Shown here piece after piece: positions 4,280 through 53,905 of a stretch of 64,000 nucleotides of DNA (the first letter of the stretch is position 1; every line of letters starts with the position of its first letter). Source of the stretch: a virus (Duplodnaviria > Heunggongvirae > Uroviricota > Caudoviricetes); IMG/VR virus record IMGVR_UViG_2627854069_000003; one strand, 5' to 3'. The notes under the pieces are model-generated. The model was not told where the DNA came from. It searched no databases and worked only from the letters and a program-made list of their open reading frames with translations. The translations under genes and the position numbers were made by a program.

Positions 4280-4450
4280 CATTTCCGTGACGCCATCACG
4301 GAAACAAGGTGGGTTCTCGTGGCGATCGCCACGAGAACCCACGACAGCCTGGCGGCAAATCAGGAGACGAACGAACGCGACAGGTTGTCACCGTCATTTC
4401 GTGATGGCGTCGCGCAGTCACGGATAGTTTTCGTGACGACACGTCACATC
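4280..4450. repeat. palindrome/iteron-like cluster
   Basis: Perfect 34-bp palindrome GTGGGTTCTCGTGGCGATCGCCACGAGAACCCAC (4309-4342) centred on GATC. Flanked by TTTCCGTGA-N5-TCACGGAAA (4283-4305) and GTGACGacaCGTCAC (about 4428). Motif TTT(C)CGTGAYG occurs three times. Confidence 0.5.
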
Positions 4451-5739: not shown

Positions 5740-7596
5740 CTAGCGAGAGCGTGAGGCTACCGGTGCCGGAACCGGCACTGGTAGTTCTACGCCGTAATCC
5801 AGCTTCGCCAGACGCGCAGACATGTCAGCCAAGGTGAGCAACACCGTTTCGTCCTCGTAACCGTCCGCGACCTGGTTGTCCGACGACTCTTTATGGCCGC
5901 TGATGCAGCGCAGATTGACGCCAATTTTCCTGCCGTATGTCAGCAGCGTGTGCCGGAACGTGTGAGAGCCGCGTACCGCGTTTCCCTGCTCGTTAGTGAC
6001 GCCGTGTAGGCCGATGGTGCGCATGTAGTTCGCCACAAACTTTCCAGGCGCTGCGCCAGCATCACCGCTTGTCGGCGTCCACTGCGGAAATAGCCGCCGT
6101 GCTCCGCCACGCTTCGTTTGTTCGAGGTAGTCCGGTAGACCGAGCCGAACCAGTTCAGCATGCATCGGAATCGTACGCGGTTTGCCGGTCTTCACCGACT
6201 TGATGACGTCCGGGTCTGGGCTTTCGCCGGGCTCATTGGTCAACCGCAGCCACCAGATTCCGTCCTTGCTCCCCCAATCGCTCTGAGGGTTAATCTGGCA
6301 GATTTCTCGAACACGGGCGCCCGTGTACAGCTCTATCGCCAACAGCCAAAACTTATGCACCTGGGCAGGGCTGGCTACAATTTTCTTCATCCGGTCATTG
6401 AAGAAAATCAGGCTAATCTCGTCAGGCCGCAGCGCGCGCTGCTTGCGTTCGGTCGTCGTGCGTGACCCAAGATACGGGATATTCGTTGTCAGAGTTGTTG
6501 GGAACCCGACATCTTGCCAATCAGCAACGGCGCAGTCGATAAACGTGCGCAGTGACGCGAGATATGAACCTTCATAGGTCTTAAGCGACAGCGTTTCGCT
6601 CCACCCCTTGCTCGCCAAATCTCGGATGTTCTGACCGCTTTTCCGGCGTAGATCAGACCAGCGAGGCGGGAGTTTCTGGACGGTAAGCAGGAAGTCTTTG
6701 ACATGCGACTGACGCAGCTCGGTGATGGGCATGTCTCCCACCACTTCGAGGAAGGCGGGGAGAATGAATCGGTGCTTCTCGTTCATTGCCCGTTGAGCAG
6801 GCGGAAGATGTTCAAGGAACTCTTTGATAGCCGCAGATAGCATCATCACGTTCGCAACGCCGACGACCGCCCCAGATTCCCCCACCGGCCTTTTTAGCGG
6901 AGCGGCCGGGGTGGCAACGGGCCGGTCTTCGCCGTTATCGCGAGCCTGTACAACGCCAATGCCCGCCAGGTGCGCACGCACGAAAGCAAGCAGCAGCCTT
7001 CCTTCGTCCACTGTACCAATGAGCTCATCTGCGAGCCGGTATCCGTTCAGGTACAGCGTCTGATGCGTAACTTGCTGGAATGCACTGCAATCGCCCGTAG
7101 CCAAGGCTCGCCTCAACAGCCTCTCGGACTCGGAGTGGGCTGCCCGTGCCTCGCCCATTTCGAGCCCAGCTTGTTGGCCCACGGCGGCAGCCTCACGCCG
7201 CTGAATGTCTGCGATTTCGGTTGTGGCGAATACCGTTGAGAAGAACCGCTGCGCAACATCTGGGGTGACTTCGTTGAGGACTTCAAGGTCGTCCCATACA
7301 TGGAAGCCATTCTTGCTGAGCCGCTGCAACCCGTTGCGGGCCGAAGCAATCCGTTCTGTTGACTCGTGCGCCAGGCGGTCGCGTTCGCGGCAAGCCGTTC
7401 GGTAGTCCCCGCTGAGCTTTTCCTTGAACTCTCGTCTACCGATGATGTGCCGCACGTCTTCAGGCACGCCGCGACGAAAGAGGTACCCGGTACCGGTCCG
7501 GGTCTTGAACATGAATTGAGGCATACGGTCGTCCGTGGCCGTACCCCCTTGCTGCCTGTTGCCTTGTACCTGCTTTTGTACCTTCGTTTGTACCAT
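5740..7596 (-). CDS. tyrosine site-specific integrase (large, with N-terminal extension); alternative start at 7524
   Basis: C-terminal catalytic motifs ...GSHTFRHTLLTYGRKIGVNLRCISGHKE...Y; sits beside a tRNA-Ser 3' fragment. Confidence 0.85.
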   Translation of the reverse strand: MVQTKVQKQVQGNRQQGGTATDDRMPQFMFKTRTGTGYLFRRGVPEDVRHIIGRREFKEKLSGDYRTACRERDRLAHESTERIASARNGLQRLSKNGFHVWDDLEVLNEVTPDVAQRFFSTVFATTEIADIQRREAAAVGQQAGLEMGEARAAHSESERLLRRALATGDCSAFQQVTHQTLYLNGYRLADELIGTVDEGRLLLAFVRAHLAGIGVVQARDNGEDRPVATPAAPLKRPVGESGAVVGVANVMMLSAAIKEFLEHLPPAQRAMNEKHRFILPAFLEVVGDMPITELRQSHVKDFLLTVQKLPPRWSDLRRKSGQNIRDLASKGWSETLSLKTYEGSYLASLRTFIDCAVADWQDVGFPTTLTTNIPYLGSRTTTERKQRALRPDEISLIFFNDRMKKIVASPAQVHKFWLLAIELYTGARVREICQINPQSDWGSKDGIWWLRLTNEPGESPDPDVIKSVKTGKPRTIPMHAELVRLGLPDYLEQTKRGGARRLFPQWTPTSGDAGAAPGKFVANYMRTIGLHGVTNEQGNAVRGSHTFRHTLLTYGRKIGVNLRCISGHKESSDNQVADGYEDETVLLTLADMSARLAKLDYGVELPVPVPAPVASRSR

Positions 7597-7659: not shown

Positions 7660-7700
7660 TGGCGGAGAGAGGGGGATTCGAACCCCCGAGGACCATCTGA
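7660..7700 (-). other. 3' fragment of a tRNA-Ser gene (T-arm + acceptor 3' strand + CCA) = att-type direct repeat marking the junction between two integrated elements
   Basis: rc reads ...GGTCCTCGGGGGTTCGAATCCCCCTCTCTCCGCCA; no matching 5' acceptor strand GGAGAGA upstream, so not a complete tRNA. Confidence 0.6.
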
Positions 7701-8026: not shown

Positions 8027-8575
8027 TCACTTTTGCTTCGAGTCACGCTTGACGCGAAGCTTCCCATACTGGTCGTCTACCTCCTTCTTAGCAGACTCCT
8101 TCGCGATTTGATCTTGAACTATCTGGGCTGGAAACAGGGTCATAAACACAATCACCACTTGCCACATAGTTAGCACCGAGAGAATTACAAACGAGATTCC
8201 TCGCGCCACTTCTACGTGCGGCCGAACGGCAGGAACTTCTTTGATAAGAGGAGCACAAATCCCAAGCAGTAACAGCAGCCCAAGAATGATAGTGGAATGG
8301 ACTGCGGGGGTGAGCAGCACCCCCAAATTCCCGTTACTCCCGCCGTTTTTATTACCGCCCCTAAACGACACCTTCAAACGCTCCGGATAAATTATCGCCA
8401 ACCACGCACCAATAACCGCAAAGATAATAGAAGCCGTCGTCCGAAGAGCCTCATATAATGGCCATTGCTTTTCAAATGGAATATGACGCCCATAATAATA
8501 CCCCGCCACACAGACGATTATCGCAAATAAAATTGCGACAACGCGAAATATCATTGCGCCAATTCTATAAATCAT
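8027..8575 (-). CDS. small integral membrane protein (4 predicted TM helices), second gene of a low-GC two-gene operon
   Basis: 182 aa; hydrophobic segments about 7-27, 46-63, 85-110, 124-148; start overlaps upstream stop (ATGA); local GC about 45-50% versus about 66% around it. Confidence 0.6.
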   Translation of the reverse strand: MIYRIGAMIFRVVAILFAIIVCVAGYYYGRHIPFEKQWPLYEALRTTASIIFAVIGAWLAIIYPERLKVSFRGGNKNGGSNGNLGVLLTPAVHSTIILGLLLLLGICAPLIKEVPAVRPHVEVARGISFVILSVLTMWQVVIVFMTLFPAQIVQDQIAKESAKKEVDDQYGKLRVKRDSKQK

Positions 8576-9666
8576 TCCAATATCGCCAAAATACGACGCC
8601 TATGATCGTTCAATGACCCCGCCAGCACTTCCAAATCAACAATCTCTTCATTTCGTCGCTCAACATAAATTTCAAAACTATCGCTCGCCAGTGACCGCCG
8701 CAACCAGTATGCCTTGCTCCCCTCGCCCTGGAATTTGAATCCGATGTCGTCCCACATACGCTCATCGTCATTCTCATCCTCTCTTGCAAAGATTTCCCGG
8801 AGCTCGTCTATCGTCGGCTGATACTCCATTTCGACAAAAACCGATTTATCCATAACAACCGGTTGATCGTCGGGCCGACGTCCACGAATGAAGCTAACGA
8901 GCCCCTCCCACGTGGTACGTTGCACTCGATTTTCTACAGTCAAGTGCCCACGCCGCATCACACGCCTTATTCGGCCAACATTATCCAATATGTACTTCCT
9001 CTGACCATCTTTCACAAAAGCAAGCGTCTTGAATTTAGGATATTTCACACCATCCAAATTCACGCCATCTTCTGCGTACCCAACAACTACATCTTCGCCA
9101 TTTTCGTTTTGCCCGCCGACCACGTACCTAGCCTCCCTAGCAAGGAAACGCTCTACGTAATCCCTCATTCCTTGCTGACCGGATACGTTATGGATAAACC
9201 TGATACTCGCAATGAGGCTTCTTTGCGGTATCACCCAGAAATACGTGGCATATCCCGGGATGCTATTTTCAGCAATTTCGTTTATATGAACTTCAGGAGC
9301 TCCAACTGGCGAATCACGCGATATAGATGCAACTCCGCCTTCGTGGGCTGGCACTTCGTTCCAAGTTGCAAACACCCATTCGTTACCACGCGCCACAATC
9401 CCGGCTAGATAAATTGGGAGTCTTTCATCATTTGCCCCGCCGTCATCAAATAACTTCGTAAGTGACAAAGGCATCCCTGCGGACCAATCGCGTAATTGCT
9501 CAAACGTGTCCGAAATTCCGCCAAAGCTCGCTTGCCGACTGCCCCACGGGTAGTAGCCGCATTGGTCGATCTTGTAAAAAGTAATTTTTACTGTTTCATT
9601 AGGCACAATCTTTCCCCCGGTAACTTTGACGGAGTATGCAGGAAAAGACCATGCCTGTGCATCCAT
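8572..9666 (-). CDS. hypothetical soluble protein (364 aa), first gene of a putative SOS-regulated two-gene module
   Basis: Long ORF in an AT-rich segment; no motif I can assign (weak Rx5H RVMRRGH); LexA-type box 13 bp upstream of its ATG. Confidence 0.6.
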   Translation of the reverse strand: MDAQAWSFPAYSVKVTGGKIVPNETVKITFYKIDQCGYYPWGSRQASFGGISDTFEQLRDWSAGMPLSLTKLFDDGGANDERLPIYLAGIVARGNEWVFATWNEVPAHEGGVASISRDSPVGAPEVHINEIAENSIPGYATYFWVIPQRSLIASIRFIHNVSGQQGMRDYVERFLAREARYVVGGQNENGEDVVVGYAEDGVNLDGVKYPKFKTLAFVKDGQRKYILDNVGRIRRVMRRGHLTVENRVQRTTWEGLVSFIRGRRPDDQPVVMDKSVFVEMEYQPTIDELREIFAREDENDDERMWDDIGFKFQGEGSKAYWLRRSLASDSFEIYVERRNEEIVDLEVLAGSLNDHRRRILAILE

Positions 9667-9676
9667 GCCACTATGA

Positions 9677-9696
9677 TGCTGTATTTTTATACAGCA
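9677..9696. promoter_or_regulatory. LexA (SOS) box TGCTGTATTTTTATACAGCA (CTGT-N8-ACAG)
   Basis: Perfect palindromic match to the E. coli-type SOS box consensus TACTGTATATATATACAGTA, immediately upstream of the 8572..9666 gene. Confidence 0.6.
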
Positions 9697-9708
9697 TTTA
9701 ATGCGACG

Positions 9709-10395
9709 CTACCTAGAGCCGGCATGCGAGACCTCTCCGTCCGTCATGTCGTACGCTGGGTAGAGTTGTAACATCGCGCGAGCGGCCTCGACGTTCGACG
9801 TCGACAGCCACTCCTCCCAATCGTCCGGCCGAAGTATGACGACCGACCGCTTTTCGTCGCGCGGCTTATGCATGCGCGACATGATGCGATGGCCCTCGGC
9901 ATTGACGGTGATCATCGACATCGTGTGCGTCTGGTTCCCGTCTGCACCAATTAGCGTACGCCAGATCCCTGCAACACAATACGGCCGCCAACCGGTCACG
10001 CCGATTCGATGCCAGACGTTTCGGCCGGTCTCGTAGCATGGTTCGTAAATCCATTGCGCAGGAATCAGGCAGCGGCGACCTGCGCGCCACGCCGGCCCGT
10101 ATAGCGGCGACCGCCCAAGATTGTCATCGCGCACGTTCATCGTGCTACGCATGATCGGTGGCGCCTTCCCCTCGGCCTTCGCTTTCTCGATGTTCGCTTT
10201 CTGCAACGCGCGCGGCCAGTAACCAAACCCCGCGAGGAACGCCTCGACGTGCCCGTCGATCATCGCAACCGTAGGCGCAAGATAGTCCGGGTAGATCTCA
10301 GGCTCCCACGGCGTTCTCTTCCATAGGTCAATCAGGCCAAGCCGTAACTCGCTGATGCCCGGATCTTCGTCGGGGGCGCGATAGTTGGTGCACAC
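9709..10395 (-). CDS. SOS response-associated peptidase (SRAP/YedK/DUF159, abasic-site DNA-protein crosslink enzyme); likely true start GTG at 10395 giving N-terminal Met-Cys; the long ORF extends to ATG 10440
   Basis: Motifs align with YedK: ...GYWPRAL..., ...HRIMSRMHKPRDEKRSVVILRPDDWEEWL; AAGAGG RBS 7 nt upstream of the GTG-TGC (Met-Cys) start; catalytic Cys2 requires this start. Confidence 0.7.
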   Translation of the reverse strand: MCTNYRAPDEDPGISELRLGLIDLWKRTPWEPEIYPDYLAPTVAMIDGHVEAFLAGFGYWPRALQKANIEKAKAEGKAPPIMRSTMNVRDDNLGRSPLYGPAWRAGRRCLIPAQWIYEPCYETGRNVWHRIGVTGWRPYCVAGIWRTLIGADGNQTHTMSMITVNAEGHRIMSRMHKPRDEKRSVVILRPDDWEEWLSTSNVEAARAMLQLYPAYDMTDGEVSHAGSR

Positions 10396-10444
10396 GGCGG
10401 CACCTCTTTTCGGGGGATGGATCACTTCATCATAGTCCAAGATA

Positions 10445-10464
10445 TACTGTATAAAATTACAGGT
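10445..10464. promoter_or_regulatory. LexA (SOS) box TACTGTATAAAATTACAGGT (CTGT-N8-ACAG) upstream of the SRAP gene
   Basis: 17/20 match to the E. coli SOS box consensus; in the divergent promoter region between SRAP and the 10480 gene. Confidence 0.6.
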
Positions 10465-10479
10465 TTCCCGTATTACGAA

Positions 10480-11121
10480 ATGATCCTGCCACCGTTCAAT
10501 CCGCCCAAGCTACCCGAGATGACCGAGTGGTGGACGCGCTGCACATATGCTGACGTCCAGCGTCTGATTCTCGAAGTTCAGCACCAGCGCCTCACTTTGT
10601 GGGAGCTCCGCAGCTGCATCGCCGATGCGTCGCGCCGAGCGCGCGCGATCGACCCATCGTTGCTTGAGTATGGCGCACCGCTACGGAGGCTCGGCTTCAT
10701 CGTCGACAAGGAAATCGGTCGTGCCGCCCCATTCGCTCGCATGCAGGAACCGGTCGCGCCGTTTTCCGACGAGTGGCGTGCAAGGCAAGAAATCAGGTCA
10801 AAGCGCTGGGAGTCTCCGGACGACACGCCACCCGGCGCATCTCCGAAATCGATCCCAGAGTTTCAGCGGGTAACGTGGGAAGAACTGCGCGAGAAATGGC
10901 GTTTCGAGGAAGGCAAGAAGGTCGGCCGGCACACGTTCGAGCAACGCATGGCGCTCGAAATCGCGTATTTGCGAAGCCACATTGTTGGAAAGTCGCGAAA
11001 GCTCGTCGATGCAGCCCGGGTTGAAGCAGAGAAAAGCGGTGTGGAGTTGTTCGCGCTAGACCAGCTGAAACGCATTCTCGAGGTCGAGCGCGACGAAGAG
11101 GCGTTCTGCCGTATCACGTAG
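10480..11121 (+). CDS. hypothetical protein
   Basis: 213 aa MILPPFNPPKLPEMTEWWTRCTYADVQRL...; divergent from the SRAP gene. Confidence 0.45.
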   Translation: MILPPFNPPKLPEMTEWWTRCTYADVQRLILEVQHQRLTLWELRSCIADASRRARAIDPSLLEYGAPLRRLGFIVDKEIGRAAPFARMQEPVAPFSDEWRARQEIRSKRWESPDDTPPGASPKSIPEFQRVTWEELREKWRFEEGKKVGRHTFEQRMALEIAYLRSHIVGKSRKLVDAARVEAEKSGVELFALDQLKRILEVERDEEAFCRIT

Positions 11122-11250
11122 CGAGGACGAAACGACGAACGAGCCGGGTCTACTCGATGAGACGCGAAGACTAGGCTTGACTTCTGCGAACACTACCTCG
11201 GCTACCATGCCGCCCGCCGGACAGTGGTGGCGCCGCGAGCCGCCGACACG

Positions 11251-12372
11251 TCAAACTGGACCGGCCACTATGGGGTAGGGAATCGATCCTTTGGGCAAGC
11301 GCGGTGTTTTGAGGACCGCAGCCTTCGCGCTCAGCAATTCGTCGTCGCCTACCTCGAAGCGGCGCAGCCACGCTGCAGTTGATTCGCGCGTGTTGTAGAC
11401 CGGCGCGCCCGCGTTGACTGTGCCGCGCTGAAGAATGTCCATGCTTTCCGCTCGCACGCGCCGCAGCGCCTTGTCGAGGACGACGTAGGCCGGCGGCAAG
11501 AACGGGGGTTGCTCCTCGCGATCGGAGAGCCCCGACTCGGGCAACACGCCCGCACGAATGATAACGCCGGCCCCGTAGTCGCCGATGGCGAACCAACTCG
11601 GAGGCAGCTCCGACATCAGCGCGCGGATGCCACCGACAGCGTCCAACATGGGTTTGTCGATAGCCGTCAGCCAATTGACGGTCTTAATTTTGCCCTTCAG
11701 GTCACGGGCCGAGGTAGATCCAGGGTCGCCGACATCGAGCCCCGGCATAATTTGCGCGATCCAGTATTCTGTCGCTTCGTTCTCGTGAGGGGTGGTCGGG
11801 GAAAGGTTGACAGCAAAGCCCGCCTGCCCTTGGACGGCACCTAAGCGGCGCGCAGCGTCAAAGAACAGCTTGGCGAAGGCATCGGGGTTCTCTTGGACAG
11901 CGACGACCGGCCACGAGAATGCTAGGGAGTTGAGACCGCGGTTGCCCATCTTCTCTTGCCATTGGCGCTGGCCCACGACCTCGAACCTCCAAAAACTCGC
12001 GTCCGAAGCTTGCTCCCCGCCGACATAGCAGAAGTCGAAGCGGTCCTCAGGACCGAGCTTGCTGGCGGCGGCACGCAAAGGCTTCGCGCGCGCGAACGGC
12101 TGTGCGGCCTTCCCGTTACTCCATAGGAACGTCAACTTGCATTCCGGTGCAGCACAGTAGTCGTCGAAACAGTCGGCAATCGCCTCGCGGATGGCGGGAT
12201 CGAAAGCGCGCTCGAAATAAAGCGACGCGCGCACGACTACGGCCGCTCCGATTCCGCCGGTTGCATAGCGAGGTTCCAAAAGACCATTGGGCACCAGCGC
12301 TTTGCCCTGATTGGCCTTCGCCCATTCGAGAAAATTCTGATCCATGTTCACGTCGATGCCAGTAAAGCCCAA
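11251..12372 (-). CDS. putative immunity protein for the adjacent nuclease toxin (DUF3396/Imm-like)
   Basis: 373 aa gene immediately downstream of the toxin, 1-nt gap (stop/start abut); typical effector-immunity layout; family assignment from memory only. Confidence 0.5.
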   Translation of the reverse strand: MGFTGIDVNMDQNFLEWAKANQGKALVPNGLLEPRYATGGIGAAVVVRASLYFERAFDPAIREAIADCFDDYCAAPECKLTFLWSNGKAAQPFARAKPLRAAASKLGPEDRFDFCYVGGEQASDASFWRFEVVGQRQWQEKMGNRGLNSLAFSWPVVAVQENPDAFAKLFFDAARRLGAVQGQAGFAVNLSPTTPHENEATEYWIAQIMPGLDVGDPGSTSARDLKGKIKTVNWLTAIDKPMLDAVGGIRALMSELPPSWFAIGDYGAGVIIRAGVLPESGLSDREEQPPFLPPAYVVLDKALRRVRAESMDILQRGTVNAGAPVYNTRESTAAWLRRFEVGDDELLSAKAAVLKTPRLPKGSIPYPIVAGPV

Positions 12373-13107
12373 TTATGGAACGACAATGGGGGGCGGTGGC
12401 AACGGCAAGCCACCCATGCCAGGCGAGGTAACAGGACCGCGGTTCAGTAGTTGGCGCAGGGAACGCCCTAGCTCGGAGAGCGCCTCAGAAACCGCCCGGA
12501 GTGGGCTTTCGTTGGCGTCGTCGTCGGAGCAGTCACAGTCGCCGGGGCCCATGGTCGCAACCTTATCGGGCGAGCCGGCGATGCGCGCGTAGTCGTCCTC
12601 TTGCTCACGATCCCTTTCTTGAGGCGGGAATTTGATCTCCACCACGCTCTTGATGTTGTCCTGAGTTGGCGGCAGAGATCCGTCCTTGACAATCACCACG
12701 TCAGGGCGCCGAACTGCACCCGCACCGGCGGGATAGGCGTCTTTTCCACCAGGCCAATACTTTTGAATCCAGCCTGGCAGATAGGGATGCGGCTCCAAAG
12801 GAGACGCCGAGCGCATGATCGGTGACGGAGGGATCTGCGTCATGTCGTAGTTGACTTCCGACTTGTACGGGCTCTTCCATCCCATCGACCGATCCAGGTC
12901 GCGCAGGTTGCGCGAAACGCATTGCTGCTTGAGGCTTTGGCCCGATGCGCCAGTGTCTGGCTCGCGACTACACACACAAACGGCCTTGCAGATCACCTTC
13001 TTATCGACCGGGTCAGGCGTCGCGGGCCGAAGATGCACGGGCGTCGTTTCGCCCTTCGGCGACATGCCACCTTGACCGGAGTTGGCTCCGTAGGCGCGAC
13101 CACTCAT
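12373..13107 (-). CDS. polymorphic toxin with PD-(D/E)XK nuclease motif (T6SS effector-like), N-terminal Gly/Pro-rich linker
   Basis: ...RRPDVVIVKDG...NIKSVVEIKFPP (PD...E-x-K); start overlaps PAAR gene stop (ATGA). Confidence 0.6.
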   Translation of the reverse strand: MSGRAYGANSGQGGMSPKGETTPVHLRPATPDPVDKKVICKAVCVCSREPDTGASGQSLKQQCVSRNLRDLDRSMGWKSPYKSEVNYDMTQIPPSPIMRSASPLEPHPYLPGWIQKYWPGGKDAYPAGAGAVRRPDVVIVKDGSLPPTQDNIKSVVEIKFPPQERDREQEDDYARIAGSPDKVATMGPGDCDCSDDDANESPLRAVSEALSELGRSLRQLLNRGPVTSPGMGGLPLPPPPIVVP

Positions 13108-13664
13108 ATAACGCCGCCTTCACCGGGTCCCTGAGTCGACTCGGCCGAAAATTCCAGCGACCCAGCAGAGTTTGCCTCATGCCACTGCGTGTAGCCATCG
13201 GCATCAGTTTGGCCGGAAATTGTCCGTCCGTCCGCTGTTTGCAACACGTAGGGATGGTTTGCGATCGGCTTTCCAGTCGTCTCGTCAAATACCTGGAAGC
13301 GCCCGCGATATAGGCCGTCTGGTCCCTGTGGTGCCGACTGGGGGACAATGCTCTTCCCGCCGCCGATCGAATGGCCGCCGGCGGCCCCCGATGTCGGGGC
13401 AACCGTGGCGACGCCTTGCGACGCGATAAGCGTCGCGCCGCAGGCGGTCTTGTCTCCGTCCGTAGCGATTGGCCTGTCGCCAAACGTCATGTTTAGCTCG
13501 CGCTTTACGCTGACGATCGGGTAAATTCCGCCACAGCGGGGACACGTCACCATGTCGCCAAGCAACGCAATTGCCCTTCCATGAACCGTGTTGGCGGCAT
13601 TACAGCCGACCACGCGACCACCATGCGTGGTCGTGTCTCCCTCGCAAATAAACGCAAACCCCAT
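13104..13664 (-). CDS. PAAR-domain protein (T6SS spike-tip adaptor)
   Basis: MGFAFICEGDTTTHGGRVVGCNAANTVHGRAIALLGDMVTCPRCGG: PAAR-like GDxTxHGG + CxxC. Confidence 0.7.
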   Translation of the reverse strand: MGFAFICEGDTTTHGGRVVGCNAANTVHGRAIALLGDMVTCPRCGGIYPIVSVKRELNMTFGDRPIATDGDKTACGATLIASQGVATVAPTSGAAGGHSIGGGKSIVPQSAPQGPDGLYRGRFQVFDETTGKPIANHPYVLQTADGRTISGQTDADGYTQWHEANSAGSLEFSAESTQGPGEGGVI

Positions 13665-13859
13665 GCCGAAGTCTCCACAAGGAAATTTGCGGAGGAATGT
13701 AGCACGCGGGCAATTGTGGGAGCCACCCTGTCAGATCTGACAGGAATGCAGATCTGTTACCTCATGGACACCGTATATTTGGTCCGCTCACAGCATCAAA
13801 GCGGCACACACAGAATTTAGGTGTGAAGCCCCGGTCGCTCGACCGGGGCATTGGGAACG

Positions 13860-14744
13860 CTACTTCTTTTCTGGCGTGATGCCCCAACACTGCGCACCGC
13901 GCTCGTTCTCGGGAATCGCCTCGGGGTTGTGCTTACACTTGTCGATGGTGTCGAGCGCGGTACGGTAATTGATCACGAGAGGATCAACGATTCTGCTGAT
14001 CTGCTCGTCTTGCGCGAACTGGTCTGGAGTGGAACAGTCCGCGCCCATGTGCGCCGAATCCGACTTGTAAATCCCGCCAACCGTCAAAAACGATACCGCG
14101 CCGCTACGAGATGCAAAACTGATCGCGCCGGACAGTGCTTGTGAAGCGGTCAGGTATCGGCGCTCGTGAACGTACCCCGCCGCGTCGGCGTACCGTTCGA
14201 CTCGCTCTGGCTTACATGACACGATCGGCAAAACAGCATGCACAACGCGCCCTTTCAGATACTCGCGCGCGCCGTACACCGCCAGATCTCGCTGAAACTG
14301 ATCGACCGCAGCCTGTTTCTCCGGCGTGTCGATGTAGCCCGTCATGTCGTCGAACTCGAAATTTATCAATACCCATTCGCTGATGTTGATATTTGCGTTG
14401 TAAATTTCGTCGCGCGTCGGACCAACGCCGCCGTTCTCGGCCATCACCAACTGATGCAATGCCGTTCCGTCGACCACGCCGGGATACACGCCGATATCGG
14501 CACCGCGTGTCTTGAATGCGCTTTGTAGCGCGTCGATAGTTGCTTGCGCGCTCGACGCTGCTCCACCGCCCGACGTCGACGACGCGGCCGCAGCCATCAC
14601 TCGGGCGGAGCGTGCAGCAACGATCGGCGCCCCGGAATACGTCAATTTGATCGCCGGACCGGACGCTGTAGGCGCATCGTCGCCGCCGCCGCACGCGGCC
14701 AGTGTCGCCACCGTCACCATTGCAATAATCGTTTTCTTCATTTT
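13860..14744 (-). CDS. lipoprotein, hypothetical (phage moron)
   Basis: MKKTIIAMVTVATLAACGGG lipobox; AT-rich promoter region upstream. Confidence 0.6.
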   Translation of the reverse strand, partial: KMKKTIIAMVTVATLAACGGGDDAPTASGPAIKLTYSGAPIVAARSARVMAAAASSTSGGGAASSAQATIDALQSAFKTRGADIGVYPGVVDGTALHQLVMAENGGVGPTRDEIYNANINISEWVLINFEFDDMTGYIDTPEKQAAVDQFQRDLAVYGAREYLKGRVVHAVLPIVSCKPERVERYADAAGYVHERRYLTASQALSGAISFASRSGAVSFLTVGGIYKSDSAHMGADCSTPDQFAQDEQISRIVDPLVINYRTALDTIDKCKHNPEAIPENERGAQCWGITPEKK

Positions 14745-14904
14745 GATCTCAGGTTCTTGTTGATATCTCATGCCCCGCAGGCAAAATATTACACAACAAT
14801 TACGATTTGCTTCCACGAGCACAAAGTCAATTCACCGGCGAGATCGGTGCAAAGGCGGCTGGCACGCGTGCTCCCACACGCACACCGGTCGGCCCTGTTT
14901 CTCG

Positions 14905-15447
14905 TTACCGCTTGCAGCCCGGCGTCTCGCGCCGCACCGCACATACGTAGCCCTGTAGGGCCGTCAGTTTGTCGATCTCGCGCTGATCGTCGCCGGCGAC
15001 GCCGAAAACGCGTTCCGCAACCGCTGCGTCGACGTCTGCATAGGTGGCGGCACCATCGCCCACGCCGGCGGCGCTGGAATCGCTGGACACGCCGTCGCGA
15101 CCGGCTGCCGTGCAGTTTCGGACGGCGACGCGCAGCCGCTCAGTGCCAGCGGCAAGAGCAGCCCGCAGGCTGCGATTCTCTGCTTCATGCTCGATCCTCT
15201 CCTTCGTGGTTCGTTGGTCGACAGCGGCCACCGCCGACGCGGCTGCTTCGTGCGCGGCGACCGCGCGCTGCTCGGCATCGAGCGCGGCGCGCGAGATCAC
15301 GCTCAACGCTTCGGCGTGCCGTTGCGCGTCGAGCGCACGCGCTGCCTGCTCGTCGGCAAGCCGACGTGCGCCGATCAGGTGCTCGACGCCAGCGCCGGCC
15401 GCGATGCCGAGCAACGCGGCCAACAGATACGGAGCTGCTTTCGGCAT
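14905..15447 (-). CDS. Rz-like i-spanin (LysB-like)
   Basis: MPKAAPYLLAALLGIAAGAGV N-terminal TM then coiled-coil region; ATGA overlap with endolysin stop. Confidence 0.65.
   Translation of the reverse strand: MPKAAPYLLAALLGIAAGAGVEHLIGARRLADEQAARALDAQRHAEALSVISRAALDAEQRAVAAHEAAASAVAAVDQRTTKERIEHEAENRSLRAALAAGTERLRVAVRNCTAAGRDGVSSDSSAAGVGDGAATYADVDAAVAERVFGVAGDDQREIDKLTALQGYVCAVRRETPGCKR
14964..15188 (-). CDS. Rz1-like o-spanin lipoprotein embedded in the +1 frame of Rz
   Basis: MKQRIAACGLLLPLALSGCASP lipobox, Pro-rich, 74 aa, fully inside Rz. Confidence 0.6.
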   Translation of the reverse strand: MKQRIAACGLLLPLALSGCASPSETARQPVATACPAIPAPPAWAMVPPPMQTSTQRLRNAFSASPATISARSTN

Positions 15448-15956
15448 CACAGCCCCCTCTCGCACAACGCGCGCTCGGCCGCCCGGCGTTTCACGAGGCC
15501 GGGCAGCACACGACCGCCCGCCGTCACCCACTGCGGCCGGCCGCTGTCGGACTCGTTCAGCGCGCGGCACGCACCGCGCCAGTCGCCTGCGCTGAAGCGC
15601 TTCGCCGTCGTGCTGTTGCAGTAGGCGTTTGCGCCGACGTTGTAGGCGAAGCTCACAGCGGCCGCGAGCTGGTACGTGTGCCCCTTCAGCCCTGGCGTGC
15701 ACTTCAGCACCGGCTCGGCGTGCTCAATCAGCCGCTGCTCGAGACGCGCGCGGCACTCCTCGGGCGTGAAGCGCTGCCCCGCGCGCACGTCCTTCGTGTC
15801 GCCGTGGCACGCCGTGACGATCCCGATCGGGTCCGGCCGCGCGACGAGAACCTCCCCCTCAAACGCGGGGACGATAGAAAGAAGAAGGGCCGCTGTCGCG
15901 GCCCCTACCAATCCAATCAGTGTCTTCTTGTCAGCCATCGTGATGCTCCAATTCAC
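15447..15956 (-). CDS. phage endolysin (GH24 lysozyme with SAR signal-anchor)
   Basis: N-terminal TM KKTLIGLVGAATAALLLSIV followed by EGEV...ARPDPIGIVTACHGDT lysozyme motifs. Confidence 0.8.
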   Translation of the reverse strand: MNWSITMADKKTLIGLVGAATAALLLSIVPAFEGEVLVARPDPIGIVTACHGDTKDVRAGQRFTPEECRARLEQRLIEHAEPVLKCTPGLKGHTYQLAAAVSFAYNVGANAYCNSTTAKRFSAGDWRGACRALNESDSGRPQWVTAGGRVLPGLVKRRAAERALCERGL

Positions 15957-16143
15957 GCAGACGTGCGGCGAGCTCGATTTGCTCTCGACGGTCCTTACGT
16001 CGTGCGAAGTAAAAATTCAAACCGAAAGTCGCGATCGCCGTGAGAATGCCGACGATGACACCGATATCGGTCAACGTAAGCGACGACGCAACCGACGCAA
16101 TGCTCCCAGCGTAGCTCACGGCTTCCGTAGGACTAGCTCGCAT
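15931..16143 (-). CDS. holin (small, 1-2 TM)
   Basis: 70 aa, TM DIGVIVGILTAIATFGLNFYFA, charged C-terminus, directly upstream of the endolysin. Confidence 0.6.
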   Translation of the reverse strand: MRASPTEAVSYAGSIASVASSLTLTDIGVIVGILTAIATFGLNFYFARRKDRREQIELAARLRELEHHDG

Positions 16144-16185
16144 CTACTCCTCGCATAAATGAAAAAGCCGCGCGAAGGCGGTGGA

Positions 16186-16953
16186 TTAAATAATCCCAGT
16201 GCCATCTATCACCATGAACTGCATGCGCCAGCACTCTCGAAACGTCGTAATGTTCGGCGACCTTCCCCCGTTGTAAATCCGCGTTCCCCATCCGACGTCG
16301 CCACCGTTCACCCGAACCGTGCCGATTTCAAGGATGTCCCAAAGTCGCTGATTGCTGTTCGACGAGCCCCAGATATAGTGCGACGCCCACATACTCGAGA
16401 TCAGCACTGGCCGTCCGTACGAACGCAGTTGCCAAGGTGGATTCGGCGCGCCCTCGACCGTCCATCCTTCGCCGCCATTCGCGGGCATGTAAGCGTCATA
16501 CACGACATCGAGCACACGAAAGAAGGGACTCGCGGCATCGGCAATCAGTTGACCTTGCTGGTCGAACACCTGTAGGCCATACCGGCTCCCGCTCGGCGGC
16601 ACGTTCGAAAAGACAAACAACCTCACGGTCGTCTGCGCTTCGGTAATAAGTCGAACCGTATACGTCCTGCCGTCATTGCTGCTCGCATCCCAAAGAGAAA
16701 TTCCCACGCCGGCGTCGGCCGAAAAGGCATACAACGGCATGTTGGCCGAGAACGTGAACGAGGCAACCCAGAAGTCGCCGTGATATTGGAGATTGGCGTT
16801 GTTGCGCACGGTATCGATGCCAATCCATTGCGACACGGTCGACATCGATTGCACAAGCTGATAGTTCGGAGTCTGCCCGTCAATCTGGAAGACGCCGGAC
16901 TCCGTGAACGCCTGGAATCCGACTCCCATCAAAACACCCCGTATATGAGCCAC
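16186..16953 (-). CDS. phage tail-associated hypothetical protein (downstream of J)
   Basis: 255 aa; shares the motif LQ(I/V)FD..G.L with the next small ORF. Confidence 0.45.
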   Translation of the reverse strand: MAHIRGVLMGVGFQAFTESGVFQIDGQTPNYQLVQSMSTVSQWIGIDTVRNNANLQYHGDFWVASFTFSANMPLYAFSADAGVGISLWDASSNDGRTYTVRLITEAQTTVRLFVFSNVPPSGSRYGLQVFDQQGQLIADAASPFFRVLDVVYDAYMPANGGEGWTVEGAPNPPWQLRSYGRPVLISSMWASHYIWGSSNSNQRLWDILEIGTVRVNGGDVGWGTRIYNGGRSPNITTFRECWRMQFMVIDGTGII

Positions 16954-17255
16954 CCCGGCACGGGCGTTCGGTAACTACTGCTACCGTCGGTGCTATATCG
17001 CCATGAAACGCCGCCCGCACCGATCTGTACGATCGGAACGGGTGCGTTCATCGAGATATGCTGGAACAGCCAGTCCGGCATGAAAGACCAGAACGGCGTC
17101 CCGCGCGAAAGATCTACCGATACACCGCCCGCGGCGCCGCCCTGAATTCGCTGCATGCCCATTACGCGCCCGCATCGCGTCGTGCCGTCGAGCATCAGAC
17201 GACCGGTGGCATCGAAGATCTGCAAACCCGCCTTCATTCGTTCCACCTCCCCCAA
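16929..17255 (-). CDS. phage hypothetical protein (paralogous N-terminus to 16186..16953)
   Basis: 108 aa. Confidence 0.35.
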   Translation of the reverse strand: MGEVERMKAGLQIFDATGRLMLDGTTRCGRVMGMQRIQGGAAGGVSVDLSRGTPFWSFMPDWLFQHISMNAPVPIVQIGAGGVSWRYSTDGSSSYRTPVPGWLIYGVF

Positions 17256-20200
17256 CGCACCAGAATGCCCCCGTTAGGGAAGTACACTCTTCCGCCGTTT
17301 CCATCGATCACGGTCCGATAACCACTACCATCGGTCGAATTGATTTCAAACCAACCGCTCTTGTCGAGCCGCCATCCCTGCCGCCCCGCGATGTAGTTGT
17401 CGGACTGGATATAGCTGCCGATCATCGCGTTCGTGATCCAGCCCGCACCGATCAGCGCCTGACGCAAGAACACCTGCCCGCCCTGCACGACGAACGGCGC
17501 ACCGATCACACCCGAGCCGTCCTCGTCGATCACGGCGAACCGCTTCGCCGACACGAGCACCTGTGATTCGACGACGCCGTTGTCGTTATCGAGCCCCACG
17601 CCGATCGACGCCATGTACTTGTGACCATCGACGGTCGTTTGCACTTTGATCTGATACGACGCCGCGACACGCCCGTTCAGGTCGGCGTACGACTTCGCGA
17701 CGGTTTGCACCGCGGCTGCGTTGTCGTTCACCTTCGCCTGTACGGTCGTGATCTGCTGCGCCTGTGCGCGATCCGCCTCGACGCGCGCGATCGTTTCCGT
17801 CTGTACCGCGGCGCTCAGGAGGTTCGAGCTCGATCGCTGCTCTGCGGCGACCGTGTCGATCTTCTTCGCGACCGCCATGTCGCCCTCGGCAATCGCCGAC
17901 TGCAACGACCAGACGCCGGCGCTGAGCGTCTCGTCGCCCGCGTAAATCGTCGCGTCGCCGGCCATCGGCGGGGTGATCAGATCGATCGGCTCGCGAAGAT
18001 CCGAGCCAAGCGCCGACTTCCCGATCTGTCCAGCGAAGTACTTCTCGTAGTCGCTTTGATCCGTGCTCGGCTGCCCCTGCACACCCGGCCCCTTCGCCGG
18101 AAACCACGGCCCGACGTTGCCCGACGTATCGACCAGGCGCGCCCAGAAATAGAAAACCTGTCCGACCGCGAGCCCCTGATACGACGTCGCGGCCTGCGGA
18201 TACGCGAAGTCCGAGAACTTGATCGCGTCATCGCGGCTCGGCGTGCGGCTGTACCAGATCTCCGTTCGTTGCGTGTCGCCGGCGGACCCGTCGCCCGGGA
18301 ACGCCCACTTCAGGTCGATCCCATATACGATGCCCGTCGCGGTCAGCGACACCACCGACGGCGGCGGAGTGGTCTTCCCCGTGAGCACCGTATCGACGCC
18401 GTATGCCGGAATCGACGTCACGCCGAGCGCATTCTCCGCTCGCACGCGTGCGAGGTACTTCCCCTGATAGATGCCCGGCACCTCGACCTGCAGGCCGCCC
18501 GTCGACGGTACCCGGACCCACTCGCCGTTATCCTTCCGCCATTCCACGAGGTAGCTCGTCGCGTGATTCGCTGCGTCCCACACGATCACCATCGTCGTCT
18601 TCGAGATGCCCTGATCGACCACCGAGTATGTCGAGAGGCGGACGTTCGACGGCGGCGGCTGCACCGACGGCGGAACGATCGTGATCGGCCGTTGCTGGAT
18701 CTGCGCGCCGTCGTCGATTGCCGCGTACTTCCCCGGCTCGTACTGCGTCGCGTTGATCGTATAGACGATCTGGCCGTCGTCGTCGCTCTCCTGCACGCTC
18801 ACCACGCGATACTGCTGCGCCGCGAGCTCGTTGCTCTCGACCATCCACACCGCGCCCGGCACCGGATCGGCGTCGAACCGCTCGACGAGCGTGACCGTGT
18901 CGCCGTTGACCGCTTTGACAGCACGCGCCTGCGCGAGGCCCGACGGCAGGATCGCCGTGAAGCGATCGCCGGCCGAGACCGTCGGCGCCTTGTCGAGCGT
19001 GATCGTCTCGCCGGCCGCAGCGCGGATGCGCCCGCCGATCCGGCGGCCCGCCTTGCGCGGATCGGCGACGGCGATCACCTGTCCCGGCGCACAAAGCGTC
19101 CCATCGAGCCCGACCTGAAACGACACCGTCCCGGTCTCGTACCGCGACGTCAGCAGCAGCCAGCGCCCGAGGCGGTGCGCCTGAGCCTGCGACGTGCAGC
19201 CGAACGCCGTGACTTCCGTCTTGATGACGCCATAGCGGGCGATCCCGTCATCGTCCTGCACGGGCTCGACAGCCTGCTTATACTGGTTCGTCGGATCGTT
19301 GTAGCTGACAAGCGCGACCGTGTAACGCGTCTTGCGCTCGCTTCCGACGTACTTGAATGAACCGCCGACGACGTTCGCGGCCGTGTACAGGTAGACCGGA
19401 TCGGACGGCATATCGGCCGACGCGACGACGGAGCCAGCGCCCCAGTATGAAATTCCGCGAAAAACGCTCGCAAGATCCTGCATCACCTTGAACGCGTCCG
19501 CGCGCGTCTGGATCACGCAATTGCATGTGAAACGCGGTTCCTTGCCGCCCTTCCCGTCTGATACCAGTTCGTCACAGTGACGCGCGATTGCGTACAGCGC
19601 CCACTTGTCGACCATCGACGCGTCGACTCGATCGCCCAACCCGTAGAGCTTGTTCAGCAACAGGCCGTAGTAGACCCAAGCCGGATTGTTCGTCCATGCC
19701 GTCTTGAACGTGCCGTCCCACGTACCCGAATATGTGCGAGTCCCCGAGTCGTAGTTTGTCGGAACACGGAAGATCATCATCCCCCGCACGTGATACGAGC
19801 GCACCGGCACGCTTGAGAACGAGCGCGCGTCGAACGTCATGCCGACGAGCGCCGTCATCGGATAGCGGAGCTTTCGATCGACGATCTCGGTGATCGCTTC
19901 GATATTGATCGAATCAGCGATCGTCGCCGTGTGCGCGTTCGGCGTGATGCGACGCACACGGATCAGCCAACCGTTTTTCGCACGCGGCAGCTCGATCCGA
20001 TGCGAGCGCTCGTAGAGCGACGTCGTCTTGCCGTCGAACGCGCCGGCCAGCACCTGCGCATACGATCCGCCGTCGACCGACAGATCGATCGCGTAGTCGA
20101 CGCGATAGCCCGTGATATTGCCGTTCGATGTGTCTTGACGCTGTAGCGCCGGCACGCCGAAGCGCACACGCACCGCGGTCAGTTGCGTATTCTGGATCTG

Positions 20201-53045: not shown

Positions 53046-53438
53046 ATGAAGGACATCGACGAAATCAGGCGAGACAATCTGCGGCTCCTCGAGACGGAAT
53101 GCGGCAGCCCCACGGCCGCGGCGAAAATGCTCGATATGAGTCTCGCCCAATACGCTAACCTGCGCGATGGCGCGAGGGACTCCCAGACCGGCAAGAAGCG
53201 CGGCATGCGCAAGGACACCGCCCGGCGAATCGAAGAAGCTGCGGGTAAGCCGCGTGGCTGGCTCGACATCGACCACGAGCAGAACTCTGCCTCCCCAAAG
53301 GCGGGAAGCCGCACGCCCGCGGGATGGGAGCGGCTTGACGCAGGCGGTCGGGCTCAGGTCGAGGCGTTTATTAAGGGCCTTCTGGCCCGCCCCCACCAAT
53401 CCGACCCAAAAGATGACGATCGCCCATCAGGTGACTGA
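53046..53438 (+). CDS. CI-like HTH transcriptional regulator (no S24 peptidase domain)
   Basis: N-terminal HTH AAAKMLDMSLAQYANLRDG. Confidence 0.55.
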   Translation: MKDIDEIRRDNLRLLETECGSPTAAAKMLDMSLAQYANLRDGARDSQTGKKRGMRKDTARRIEEAAGKPRGWLDIDHEQNSASPKAGSRTPAGWERLDAGGRAQVEAFIKGLLARPHQSDPKDDDRPSGD

Positions 53439-53905
53439 ATCGCGAACGTAGTAACTCGTAGAGACCCGCGATAGGTTCCAGAGACCCATCCCTGAAACAG
53501 AATTCTCTCGTTTCAACGACGCGCCCGCCCTGCAGGGTGACGCCCCGTGCGCTCCTATCAAGGAGAACGTTCCAGCGTCCGTCAGGACGCCGCCGCTGAA
53601 CAAGTGCGACAGCGCCCAACAAATCGGGATTGACTGTTGCAACGACTCTAACTAAATCCCCCGGCTTACATCGCAGGCGCGCTGTCGCTTCTTCCTTCAA
53701 GGTGGCCCTCTTTCATCTTATTAAATACTGTGCATATATACAGTATTCTGCCAAGGACAATCCGGCCTAACAACGTCAATTCTGTCAGGGTGTAAGGAAA
53801 CAGCGCCCCCCCCCCCTCACTTCATCAATCGTTCAACGGATCACGTAGCCGCGCCCGACCATACGCACACGAAGTCGATGTAGGAAGAAACAAAATTTCT
53901 TCGGA

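Follow-up and report, generated by a model that had tools for sequence, protein, structure and literature searches.

A PAAR, nuclease and immunity gene cassette carried as cargo by a Stanholtvirus prophage of Burkholderia: a likely orphan type VI secretion effector module

Type VI secretion system (T6SS) effector modules belonging to the PAAR2/TseV-TsiV kind are already known: a Pfam name states the function, and carriage by phages has been reported for Burkholderia gladioli. Here, we analyse a cassette of three co-oriented genes on the minus strand, at positions 11251-13664 of a 64,000-nucleotide stretch of DNA (IMG/VR virus record IMGVR_UViG_2627854069_000003; the whole stretch is referred to below as the window). 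Positions 9000-17500 of the window are 100% identical to Burkholderia phage phiBt-TXDOH (OK095358.1), a plaque-forming temperate siphovirus of the genus Stanholtvirus, in the phi1026b/phiE125 group.

The most similar organization is that of the Pseudomonas aeruginosa PAAR2 cluster (PA0821-PA0824; TseV is PA0822 and TsiV is PA0821), which, according to the papers citing its description (Wang et al. 2021, FEBS J, as cited in PMC9635880 and PMC11751169), likewise combines a separate PAAR protein, a stand-alone VRR-Nuc toxin of about 240 aa and a DUF3396 immunity protein; tseV of this cluster is classed among the H2-T6SS effector genes (PMC11751169). Whereas the P. aeruginosa cluster is located in a chromosomal island, the present cassette is part of a packaged temperate phage genome. 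A homologous Pseudomonas locus that we inspected displays the same gene overlap and encodes a toxin about 48% identical to the one described here, but contains two PAAR and two immunity genes rather than one of each. The original annotation of phi1026b already listed similarity to NP_249512, NP_249513 and NP_249514, which, given the consecutive numbering, we take to be PA0821-PA0823.

The best characterized relatives are TseV2 and TseV3 of Salmonella bongori, T6SS-delivered structure-specific nucleases that cleave splayed arms, cause double-strand breaks and are neutralized by DUF3396 proteins (PMC9635880). The present cassette shares with them the toxin superfamily (VRR-Nuc, Plu1493 clade) and the family of the immunity proteins (TsiV2/TsiV3). 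In S. bongori, however, a PAAR-like (DUF4150) domain is fused to the toxin, whereas here the PAAR polypeptide is a separate PF05488 protein with an adaptor-like C-terminal domain of its own, and loading of the toxin must therefore be non-covalent. Among phages, the B. gladioli P2-like phages AB4 and Mana carry a moron consisting of PAAR, VRR-Nuc TseV and TsiV genes, which its authors read as a T6SS effector that might favour lysogens in competition (PMC13366799, 2026). These are also temperate Burkholderia phages, but AB4 and Mana are P2-like myoviruses of a different host species, whereas phiBt-TXDOH is a lambda-like siphovirus, and the AB4/Mana paper includes no expression or promoter analysis.

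Taken against this background, the cassette is likely to be a complete orphan T6SS effector module of the PAAR2/TseV-TsiV kind, carried as a phage moron. An earlier note on this DNA had proposed prophage-borne PAAR, nuclease and immunity cargo, and this core proposal is supported by the profile, structural and comparative evidence presented below; all the sequence features that it described are present where it had placed them. The three genes are as follows.

13104..13664, minus strand: PAAR spike-tip protein, 186 aa (Pfam PF05488 and fold)
12373..13107, minus strand: TseV-type stand-alone nuclease toxin, 244 aa, PD-(D/E)xK / VRR-Nuc
11251..12345, minus strand: TsiV-family (DUF3396) immunity protein, 364 aa (Pfam PF11876 and PDB homologue)

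The three cassette proteins

The 186-aa protein, the beginning of which (MGFAFICEGDTTTHGG..CPRCGG) had been recognized as PAAR-like, matches the complete Pfam profile PAAR_motif (PF05488; residues 8-81 against profile positions 1-70 of 70; E=8.7e-22, 77.6 bits versus a cut-off of 27) and is predicted to adopt a PAAR fold. The cone is formed by the N-terminal aa 1-85. In the AlphaFold model, which was based on an alignment of database proteins only, the predicted local distance difference test score is 75 overall and 80-94 over aa 1-80, and the best six Foldseek matches of the model in the PDB are all PAAR proteins (9vyi, 4jiw_D, 4jiv_D, 9f4b, 6p1z_D and 4ku0_D; probability 1.0; TM-scores, normalized to the target, of 0.62-0.72). 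The solved PAAR proteins matched are P1 UpfC, Escherichia coli c1882, Vibrio cholerae VCA0105, phiKZ gp163.1 and T4 gp5.4. Residues H14, C41, C44 and C75 are invariant across 23-24 homologues and, placed at the apex of the cone, are the predicted zinc ligands.

The cone is followed by a conserved C-terminal beta-sandwich extension (approximately aa 98-165) with the motif RGRFQ..D..T..P...H.Y....G....G.TD..G.T.W. Foldseek matches this domain to MG-type beta-sandwiches, and its sequence weakly matches the N-terminal portion of chain 6h56 (VgrG2b effector domain; E=0.04). Given that a Pfam search with the isolated C-terminal domain yielded nothing significant, the label 'TTR-like' for the extension draws only on the fold and on the weak VgrG2b match. 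The extension is presumed to be a cargo-binding adaptor.

The ATG of the toxin gene overlaps the TGA of the PAAR gene (ATGA at 13104-13107), an arrangement through which the toxin appears to be translationally coupled to the PAAR gene. Both this overlap and the PD...E-x-K motif of the middle gene, as reported earlier, are indeed there: the motifs are RRPD(136)VVIV and VVE(157)IK(159)F, and D136, E157 and K159 are invariant in an alignment of 25 family sequences, as are E84, four N-terminal cysteines and a CDC motif. The three signature residues map to the predicted strands 137-140 and 152-158 (beta-2 and beta-3) and, together with E84 on beta-1, are the catalytic candidates. The toxin belongs to the VRR-Nuc/TseV family, with an intact PD-(D/E)xK signature. 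The VRR_NUC profile (PF08774) itself matches the toxin below threshold (19.7 bits versus a cut-off of 23.8, E=8.9e-4). A database search yielded 332 relatives; among those listed, nearly all are about 225-248 aa long, most carry PF08774, including a precomputed match in many homologues at roughly 47-68% identity, and the named ones are called 'VRR-NUC domain-containing protein'. The predicted fold of the toxin is restriction-endonuclease-like, with modest fold-search scores. A search of the toxin sequence against the PDB gave no match at E<=1 and hence none to any solved toxin structure, Pfam returned nothing significant for the N-terminal half, and NCBIfam contained no significant family for any of the three cassette proteins.

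The earlier note had described the Gly/Pro-rich stretch in front of RRPD as a linker. This description does not hold: the stretch (approximately aa 100-131) is a low-confidence insertion between beta-1 and beta-2, that is, within the nuclease core rather than between domains, and it contains the invariant residues H107, L110, P111 and W118. The N-terminal 30 aa of the toxin are disordered, yet a GGMS..G.TT motif within them is conserved; the tail at the C-terminus is rich in Pro. By analogy with the characterized family members, the product of 12373-13107 would be expected to be toxic and to be delivered in a T6SS-dependent manner.

The third open reading frame (ORF) spans 11251-12372 on the minus strand. 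Its likely start is the ATG at 12345, which matches the phi1026b annotation; an alternative TTG start at 12372 would yield a protein of 373 aa, and, accordingly, the gap between the toxin and immunity genes is 0-27 nt. The assignment of this gene as the immunity gene, for which the right family had been named beforehand, is supported by the Pfam profile TsiV (PF11876, formerly DUF3396; E=3.3e-64, 217 bits versus a cut-off of 25) and by a phmmer match in the PDB to 7DRG chain A ('PA0821', P. aeruginosa; E=4.2e-59, residues 28-337). By the same analogy, the TsiV protein is expected to neutralize the toxin. The protein also matches, weakly, the PADLOC candidate defence family PDC-M20B (E=7e-13), which implies that DUF3396 proteins have been picked up independently as residents of defence islands.

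Cargo status, expression and distribution

The 100% match to OK095358.1 starts exactly at window position 7660, which corresponds to record position 27357, annotated as attP, and the integrase gene of the prophage runs past the right end of the window. Together, these features indicate that the window contains the integrated form of the prophage. ARAGORN detected no tRNA gene within the window, so that the intact tRNA must lie past the right end. Two features delimit the surroundings of the cassette.

7660..7689, no strand assigned: prophage end, with the att core that equals the phiBt-TXDOH attP (tRNA-Ser-GGA, 3' end)
13828..13849, minus strand: GC-rich 9-bp hairpin directly 3' of the lipoprotein gene, between that gene and the cassette promoter

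The cassette lies 3.6 kb inside the left prophage end. It is thus part of the packaged phage genome and occupies the stretch from the lysis genes to att in which cargo is classically found. In the direction of transcription, it is preceded by the holin, endolysin and Rz (spanin) genes and then a lipoprotein gene, and is followed by a gp31-like gene and then a SRAP gene. The cargo position between the lysis genes and an 'SOS module' had been proposed previously; the position is correct, and the module amounts to a gene of the SRAP family (9709-10395) preceded by a canonical LexA box. There is no compositional contrast with the rest of the phage (G+C content of 60-62% for the cassette versus a window mean of 60.4%).

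The same three genes are present in phi1026b, phiE125, phi644-2, phiBtTUL1a and PhiBP82.1, where RefSeq names them PAAR, VRR-NUC and DUF3396; in the GenBank record of phiBt-TXDOH, the first gene is annotated as a T6SS PAAR-repeat protein, whereas the genes for the toxin and the immunity protein are listed as hypothetical. Identity of the cassette proteins to their counterparts in phi1026b, phi644-2 and phiBtTUL1a is 90-98% (93-96% for phi1026b), compared to 57-85% for the adjacent lipoprotein in the same three phages. In the sister phage vB_RY3, the slot between the gp31-like and lipoprotein genes is occupied by two unrelated genes. Between phiBt-TXDOH and phi1026b, the synonymous divergence (dS) of the three genes is 0.33-0.54 and the ratio of nonsynonymous to synonymous divergence (dN/dS) is 0.05-0.07 (0.07 for the PAAR gene and 0.05 for the immunity gene); the trio is under strong purifying selection. 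In IMG/VR, 22 prophage contigs carry the cassette in the same slot, and 15 more contigs contain divergent versions (47-57% identity) without those phage neighbours, many of them near a contig end.

In the phi1026b lysogen DD503, uninduced and in early log phase, the phi1026b genes bp29, bp30 and bp31 (PAAR, VRR-NUC and DUF3396) are expressed at 186,000, 132,500 and 77,624 reads per kilobase per million mapped reads (RPKM), respectively (PMC2920897, Table 3). In the same RNA-seq data, the repressor reaches 59,976 RPKM and most structural genes are undetectable (PMC2920897). The authors of that study labelled these genes a 'restriction modification moron' (PMC2920897), a label that the present analysis replaces with that of a probable T6SS effector-immunity module. 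The region is a three-gene moron, that is, accessory cargo of phiBt-TXDOH, both replaceable and selected. It has a conserved -10 element and dyad (see below) and a hairpin upstream; the cassette may also be co-transcribed with the lipoprotein gene. The hairpin is a candidate terminator: the region folds at -28.2 kcal/mol over 71 nt (z = -3.65 versus shuffled sequences), and the stem is maintained in four phages, without a U-tract. Downstream of the immunity gene, no significant terminator structure was found. The lipoprotein gene (13860-14741, minus strand) encodes a signal peptide (MKKTIIAMVTVATLAACGG), has a weak match to YfdX and is far more variable among the sister phages than the cassette; its phi1026b orthologue, at 199,000 RPKM, is among the top-expressed prophage genes in lysogens (PMC2920897).

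To place the module beyond phages, we surveyed one genome per species, which returned 80 loci from Burkholderiaceae, Oxalobacteraceae, Pseudomonas, Acinetobacter, Xanthomonas, Achromobacter and Bordetella. The order PAAR-toxin-TsiV, sometimes with duplicated TsiV genes, is found in 74 of the 80 species-level loci; in these 74, the PAAR gene is directly upstream of the toxin gene and its product mostly aligns into the C-terminal extension, and the toxin gene is followed by TsiV in all but two of the 80. The 4-nt overlap of the PAAR and toxin genes recurs in the Pseudomonas and Burkholderia examples for which genes were called, and the gene-called relatives reside in ordinary chromosome, in islands rich in insertion sequences or in defence islands. 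A search for the phage neighbour genes around the 80 relatives produced only one weak SRAP match, suggesting that the phage slot is specific to Stanholtvirus-type prophages. Of the computational arguments for the toxin being the cargo of the PAAR protein, this tight linkage of a stand-alone toxin to a PAAR protein with an adaptor is the strongest.

Promoter and regulation

The promoter region of the cassette contains two elements.

13727..13744, no strand assigned: 18-bp perfect dyad CCTGTCAGATCTGACAGG (CCTGTCA-N4-TGACAGG), conserved in orthologous promoters
13696..13704, minus strand: putative extended -10 element, TGCTACATT; the ACAG arm of the dyad is 23 nt upstream

The dyad is one of only two perfect palindromes of at least 18 bp in the window, against 0.38 expected per shuffled window. 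Stanholtvirus phages, as well as divergent cassettes inside and outside phages (50-65% PAAR identity), have related dyads at -73 to -80 relative to the PAAR ATG, with variants such as ACCTGTCAGCACTGACAGGA, GCCCGTCAACATTGACAGGA, CCCTGCCAACTCTGACAGGA and CCCTGTCAAAACTGGCAGGA and the family consensus nCC(T/C)GTCA-N4-TGACAGGn; the dyad was seen only in cassettes of the Burkholderia lineage. The -10 element was detected through conservation only and is putative: most Burkholderia and Paraburkholderia cassettes, whether or not they have the dyad, conserve it as (G/A)TGCTA(C/A)A(T/G)T at an unchanged distance from the ATG, and the dyad lies about 23 nt upstream of TGCTACATT wherever both are present. 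A simple sigma-70 scan of the cassette promoter identified no -35/-10 pair, and no -35 element is recognizable. An 8-bp palindrome, CAGATCTG, occurs twice, 23 bp apart, inside the dyad (13732-13739) and just upstream (13755-13762); it is doubled in phiBt-TXDOH and phiBtTUL1a, but not in phi1026b or phi644-2, and the second copy could be an auxiliary half-site or a chance occurrence.

Inside the dyad, 64-79 nt upstream of the PAAR ATG, lies CTGTCAGATCTGACAG (CTGT-N8-ACAG, 13728-13743), which the earlier note had regarded as a LexA candidate, albeit a weak one. If so, the cassette would be under SOS control and induced together with the prophage after DNA damage. The palindrome is real and an exact CTGT-N8-ACAG, a pattern that occurs five times in the window against 0.43 expected; Burkholderia LexA recognizes a motif of the E. 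coli type (PMC3323433), all phi1026b-type phages retain the CTGT and ACAG arms while the spacer varies, and the prophage contains three other, clearly canonical boxes. As a LexA operator, however, the site fares poorly. On a symmetrized 20-bp matrix constructed from E. coli operators (training range 13.9-31.9 bits), it scores 4.1 bits, below the training minimum of 13.9, whereas the three canonical boxes in the window score 25-28 bits. Its spacer is 50% G+C, and it is flanked by CC/GG where a LexA operator has TA/TA. Among the orthologous cassettes, five have CCG in place of CTG, the bases critical for LexA, and two have CTGC in place of CTGT, whereas the positions irrelevant to LexA (CC..TCA/TGA..GG) stay conserved. 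Furthermore, the site spans about -55 to -38, upstream of the -35 position, and in the uninduced phi1026b lysogen, the cassette is expressed approximately 5-20 times more strongly than the adjacent genes bp32 and bp33, which flank a canonical LexA box (PMC2920897, Table 3). The low matrix score, the lack of conservation of CTG and the high uninduced expression together make LexA control improbable. More probably, the dyad is a conserved, cassette-intrinsic operator for a dimeric host regulator other than LexA.

The three canonical LexA boxes (25-28 bits on the E. coli-type matrix) are located at 53726-53745 (TACTGTGCATATATACAGTA), 9677-9696 (TGCTGTATTTTTATACAGCA) and 10445-10464 (TACTGTATAAAATTACAGGT). 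The box at 9677 is directly upstream of the ORF 8572-9666, and that at 10445, which phi1026b, phi644-2, phiBtTUL1a and vB_RY3 also have, lies between the SRAP and gp31-like genes. The one at 53726 is about 26 nt upstream of a 109-aa ORF of the early region (53371-53700, minus strand), which could encode a LexA-controlled antirepressor that governs induction.

The leading candidate for the regulator acting at the dyad, judging from the architecture of the promoter, is a quorum-sensing protein of the LuxR type. As in lux and cep boxes (cep box consensus CTGTAAAAGTTACCAGTT; PMC1766932), the site is an 18-20-bp dyad with CCTGT...ACAGG arms (CCTGT-N8-ACAGG) in a promoter devoid of a -35 element, and the distance from the right half-site to the -10 element is 27 nt, compared to 25 nt in the burI/cepI promoter (PMC4540015). 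In B. thailandensis, quorum sensing activates the substrate genes of T6SS-1, not the apparatus genes (PMC4868534). On the other hand, the phiBt-TXDOH site scores only 6.3 bits on a matrix of ten CepR-regulated sites, the training minimum of which is 14.4; the dyad variants score 7.6-16.0 bits on this matrix, with some non-phage variants at 13-16 bits. In addition, expression of the phi1026b cassette is high as early as early log phase, contrary to what strict quorum dependence would predict.

Proposed role, neighbouring genes and significance

If the cassette is an orphan T6SS effector module, as we consider likely, the following scenario can be envisaged. In a lysogen, a promoter of its own would drive the operon at a time when the structural genes of the phage are silent. 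Coupled synthesis would yield nuclease and PAAR protein in a 1:1 ratio, the nuclease would dock non-covalently on the C-terminal extension of the PAAR protein, and the PAAR cone would cap the VgrG trimer of a host apparatus, most plausibly the antibacterial T6SS-1 of B. thailandensis/B. pseudomallei. Upon firing, the nuclease would be delivered into neighbouring cells, where it would cleave branched or structured DNA and produce double-strand breaks, as is the case with the fused homologues TseV2 and TseV3, whereas the producer and sibling lysogens would be protected by TsiV occluding the DNA-binding site of the toxin. Lysogens would thereby kill non-lysogenic competitors, such that the host benefits and loss of the prophage is penalized.

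Several observations weigh against this scenario. The stand-alone TseV of P. aeruginosa was proposed as an effector from its position beside a PAAR gene (PMC9635880), and T6SS-dependent secretion is established for fused TseV but not for any stand-alone TseV. Docking of the toxin on the PAAR extension is suggested by linkage and conservation only. No vgrG or other T6SS gene was detected in the window or beside any of the relatives inspected. The PDC-M20B match of TsiV and the genomic company of some chromosomal relatives, which are found in defence islands and in one case among SIR2/HerA-like and HicAB genes, are also what would be expected if the toxin and TsiV instead worked mainly intracellularly, as a post-segregational or anti-phage pair (toxin-antitoxin, abortive infection or prophage addiction) with the PAAR gene as a passenger. 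Such a system would fit the location of the cassette in a cargo region beside a candidate defence pair (the PDC-M18-like genes described below), and T6SS effector-immunity pairs do resemble type II toxin-antitoxin systems (PMC9635880, discussion). Nevertheless, we consider a mainly intracellular role unlikely. If the PAAR protein had no part in it, the presence of such a protein, with the same C-terminal extension, in front of the toxin in 74 of the 80 loci would be hard to explain. In PADLOC, no model matches the toxin or the PAAR protein even at E<=10, and T6SS effector function is proven for the fused homologues (PMC9635880). A cassette could also serve both roles, which are not mutually exclusive.

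A structural role in the virion, with the PAAR protein sharpening the tail tip and the nuclease ejected as a phage protein, is highly improbable. PAAR proteins do tip the tail spikes of contractile phages, T4 gp5.4, phiKZ gp163.1 and P1 UpfC are among the structural matches, and the PAAR gene is only a few kb away from the tail genes. However, phiBt-TXDOH is a siphovirus of the lambda-like type, its tail tip includes the proteins J, I, K, L and M, and no VgrG/gp5-like spike that could be capped is annotated. Moreover, the cassette lies beyond the lysis genes, its slot holds other genes in vB_RY3, it is expressed in phi1026b lysogens in which the structural genes are silent, and the same trio exists in non-phage loci that lack the neighbour genes of this phage. 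In an extended version of the effector scenario, the prophage would use the host T6SS as a 'greenbeard' or addiction device that, by injecting the phage-encoded nuclease, culls TsiV-less neighbours and cured cells on contact, under LuxR-type quorum-sensing rather than SOS control and linked to the T6SS-1 effector regulon of B. thailandensis. This extended proposal is speculative and, in its entirety, rather doubtful.

Other genes in the window deserve brief mention. Two overlapping minus-strand genes that adjoin att, 8572-9666 (364 aa) and 8027-8575 (182 aa), match the PADLOC candidate anti-phage families PDC-M18A (E=9e-146) and PDC-M18B (E=1e-70), respectively. The pair is absent from the four related phages inspected and has the look of additional cargo beside att; given the canonical LexA box that precedes it, it may be a candidate defence system that the prophage carries and SOS induces. 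Immediately outside the att core (7660-7689) lies a second integrase-like gene (DUF6538 and Phage_integrase; 5740-7596, minus strand), an arrangement suggestive of a tandem integrative element that shares this tRNA-Ser site. In the prophage-flanking DNA, the adjacent minus-strand ORFs 2106-2369 and 1249-2082 resemble a two-ORF transposase of the IS3 family, a reading of 1249-2369 judged from the starts of the translations only and from a rough ORF call. The longest perfect palindrome of the window (34 bp, GTGGGTTCTCGTGGCGATCGCCACGAGAACCCAC) is at 4309-4342, in flanking host or island DNA.

Given that the kind of system was already known, the value of the present analysis is corrective: the 'restriction modification moron' label is replaced, the toxin and immunity genes listed as hypothetical for phiBt-TXDOH are assigned to families, the LexA reading of the promoter site is probably wrong, and a conserved cassette-intrinsic operator is described. 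Phages of the phi1026b/phiE125 group, temperate phages that are common in B. pseudomallei and B. thailandensis, carry what appears to be a complete and expressed T6SS effector-immunity module. If this module is functional, lysogeny would change which neighbours a strain can kill and which it tolerates, with relevance to strain competition in soil, to mixed infections and to the maintenance of the prophages themselves.

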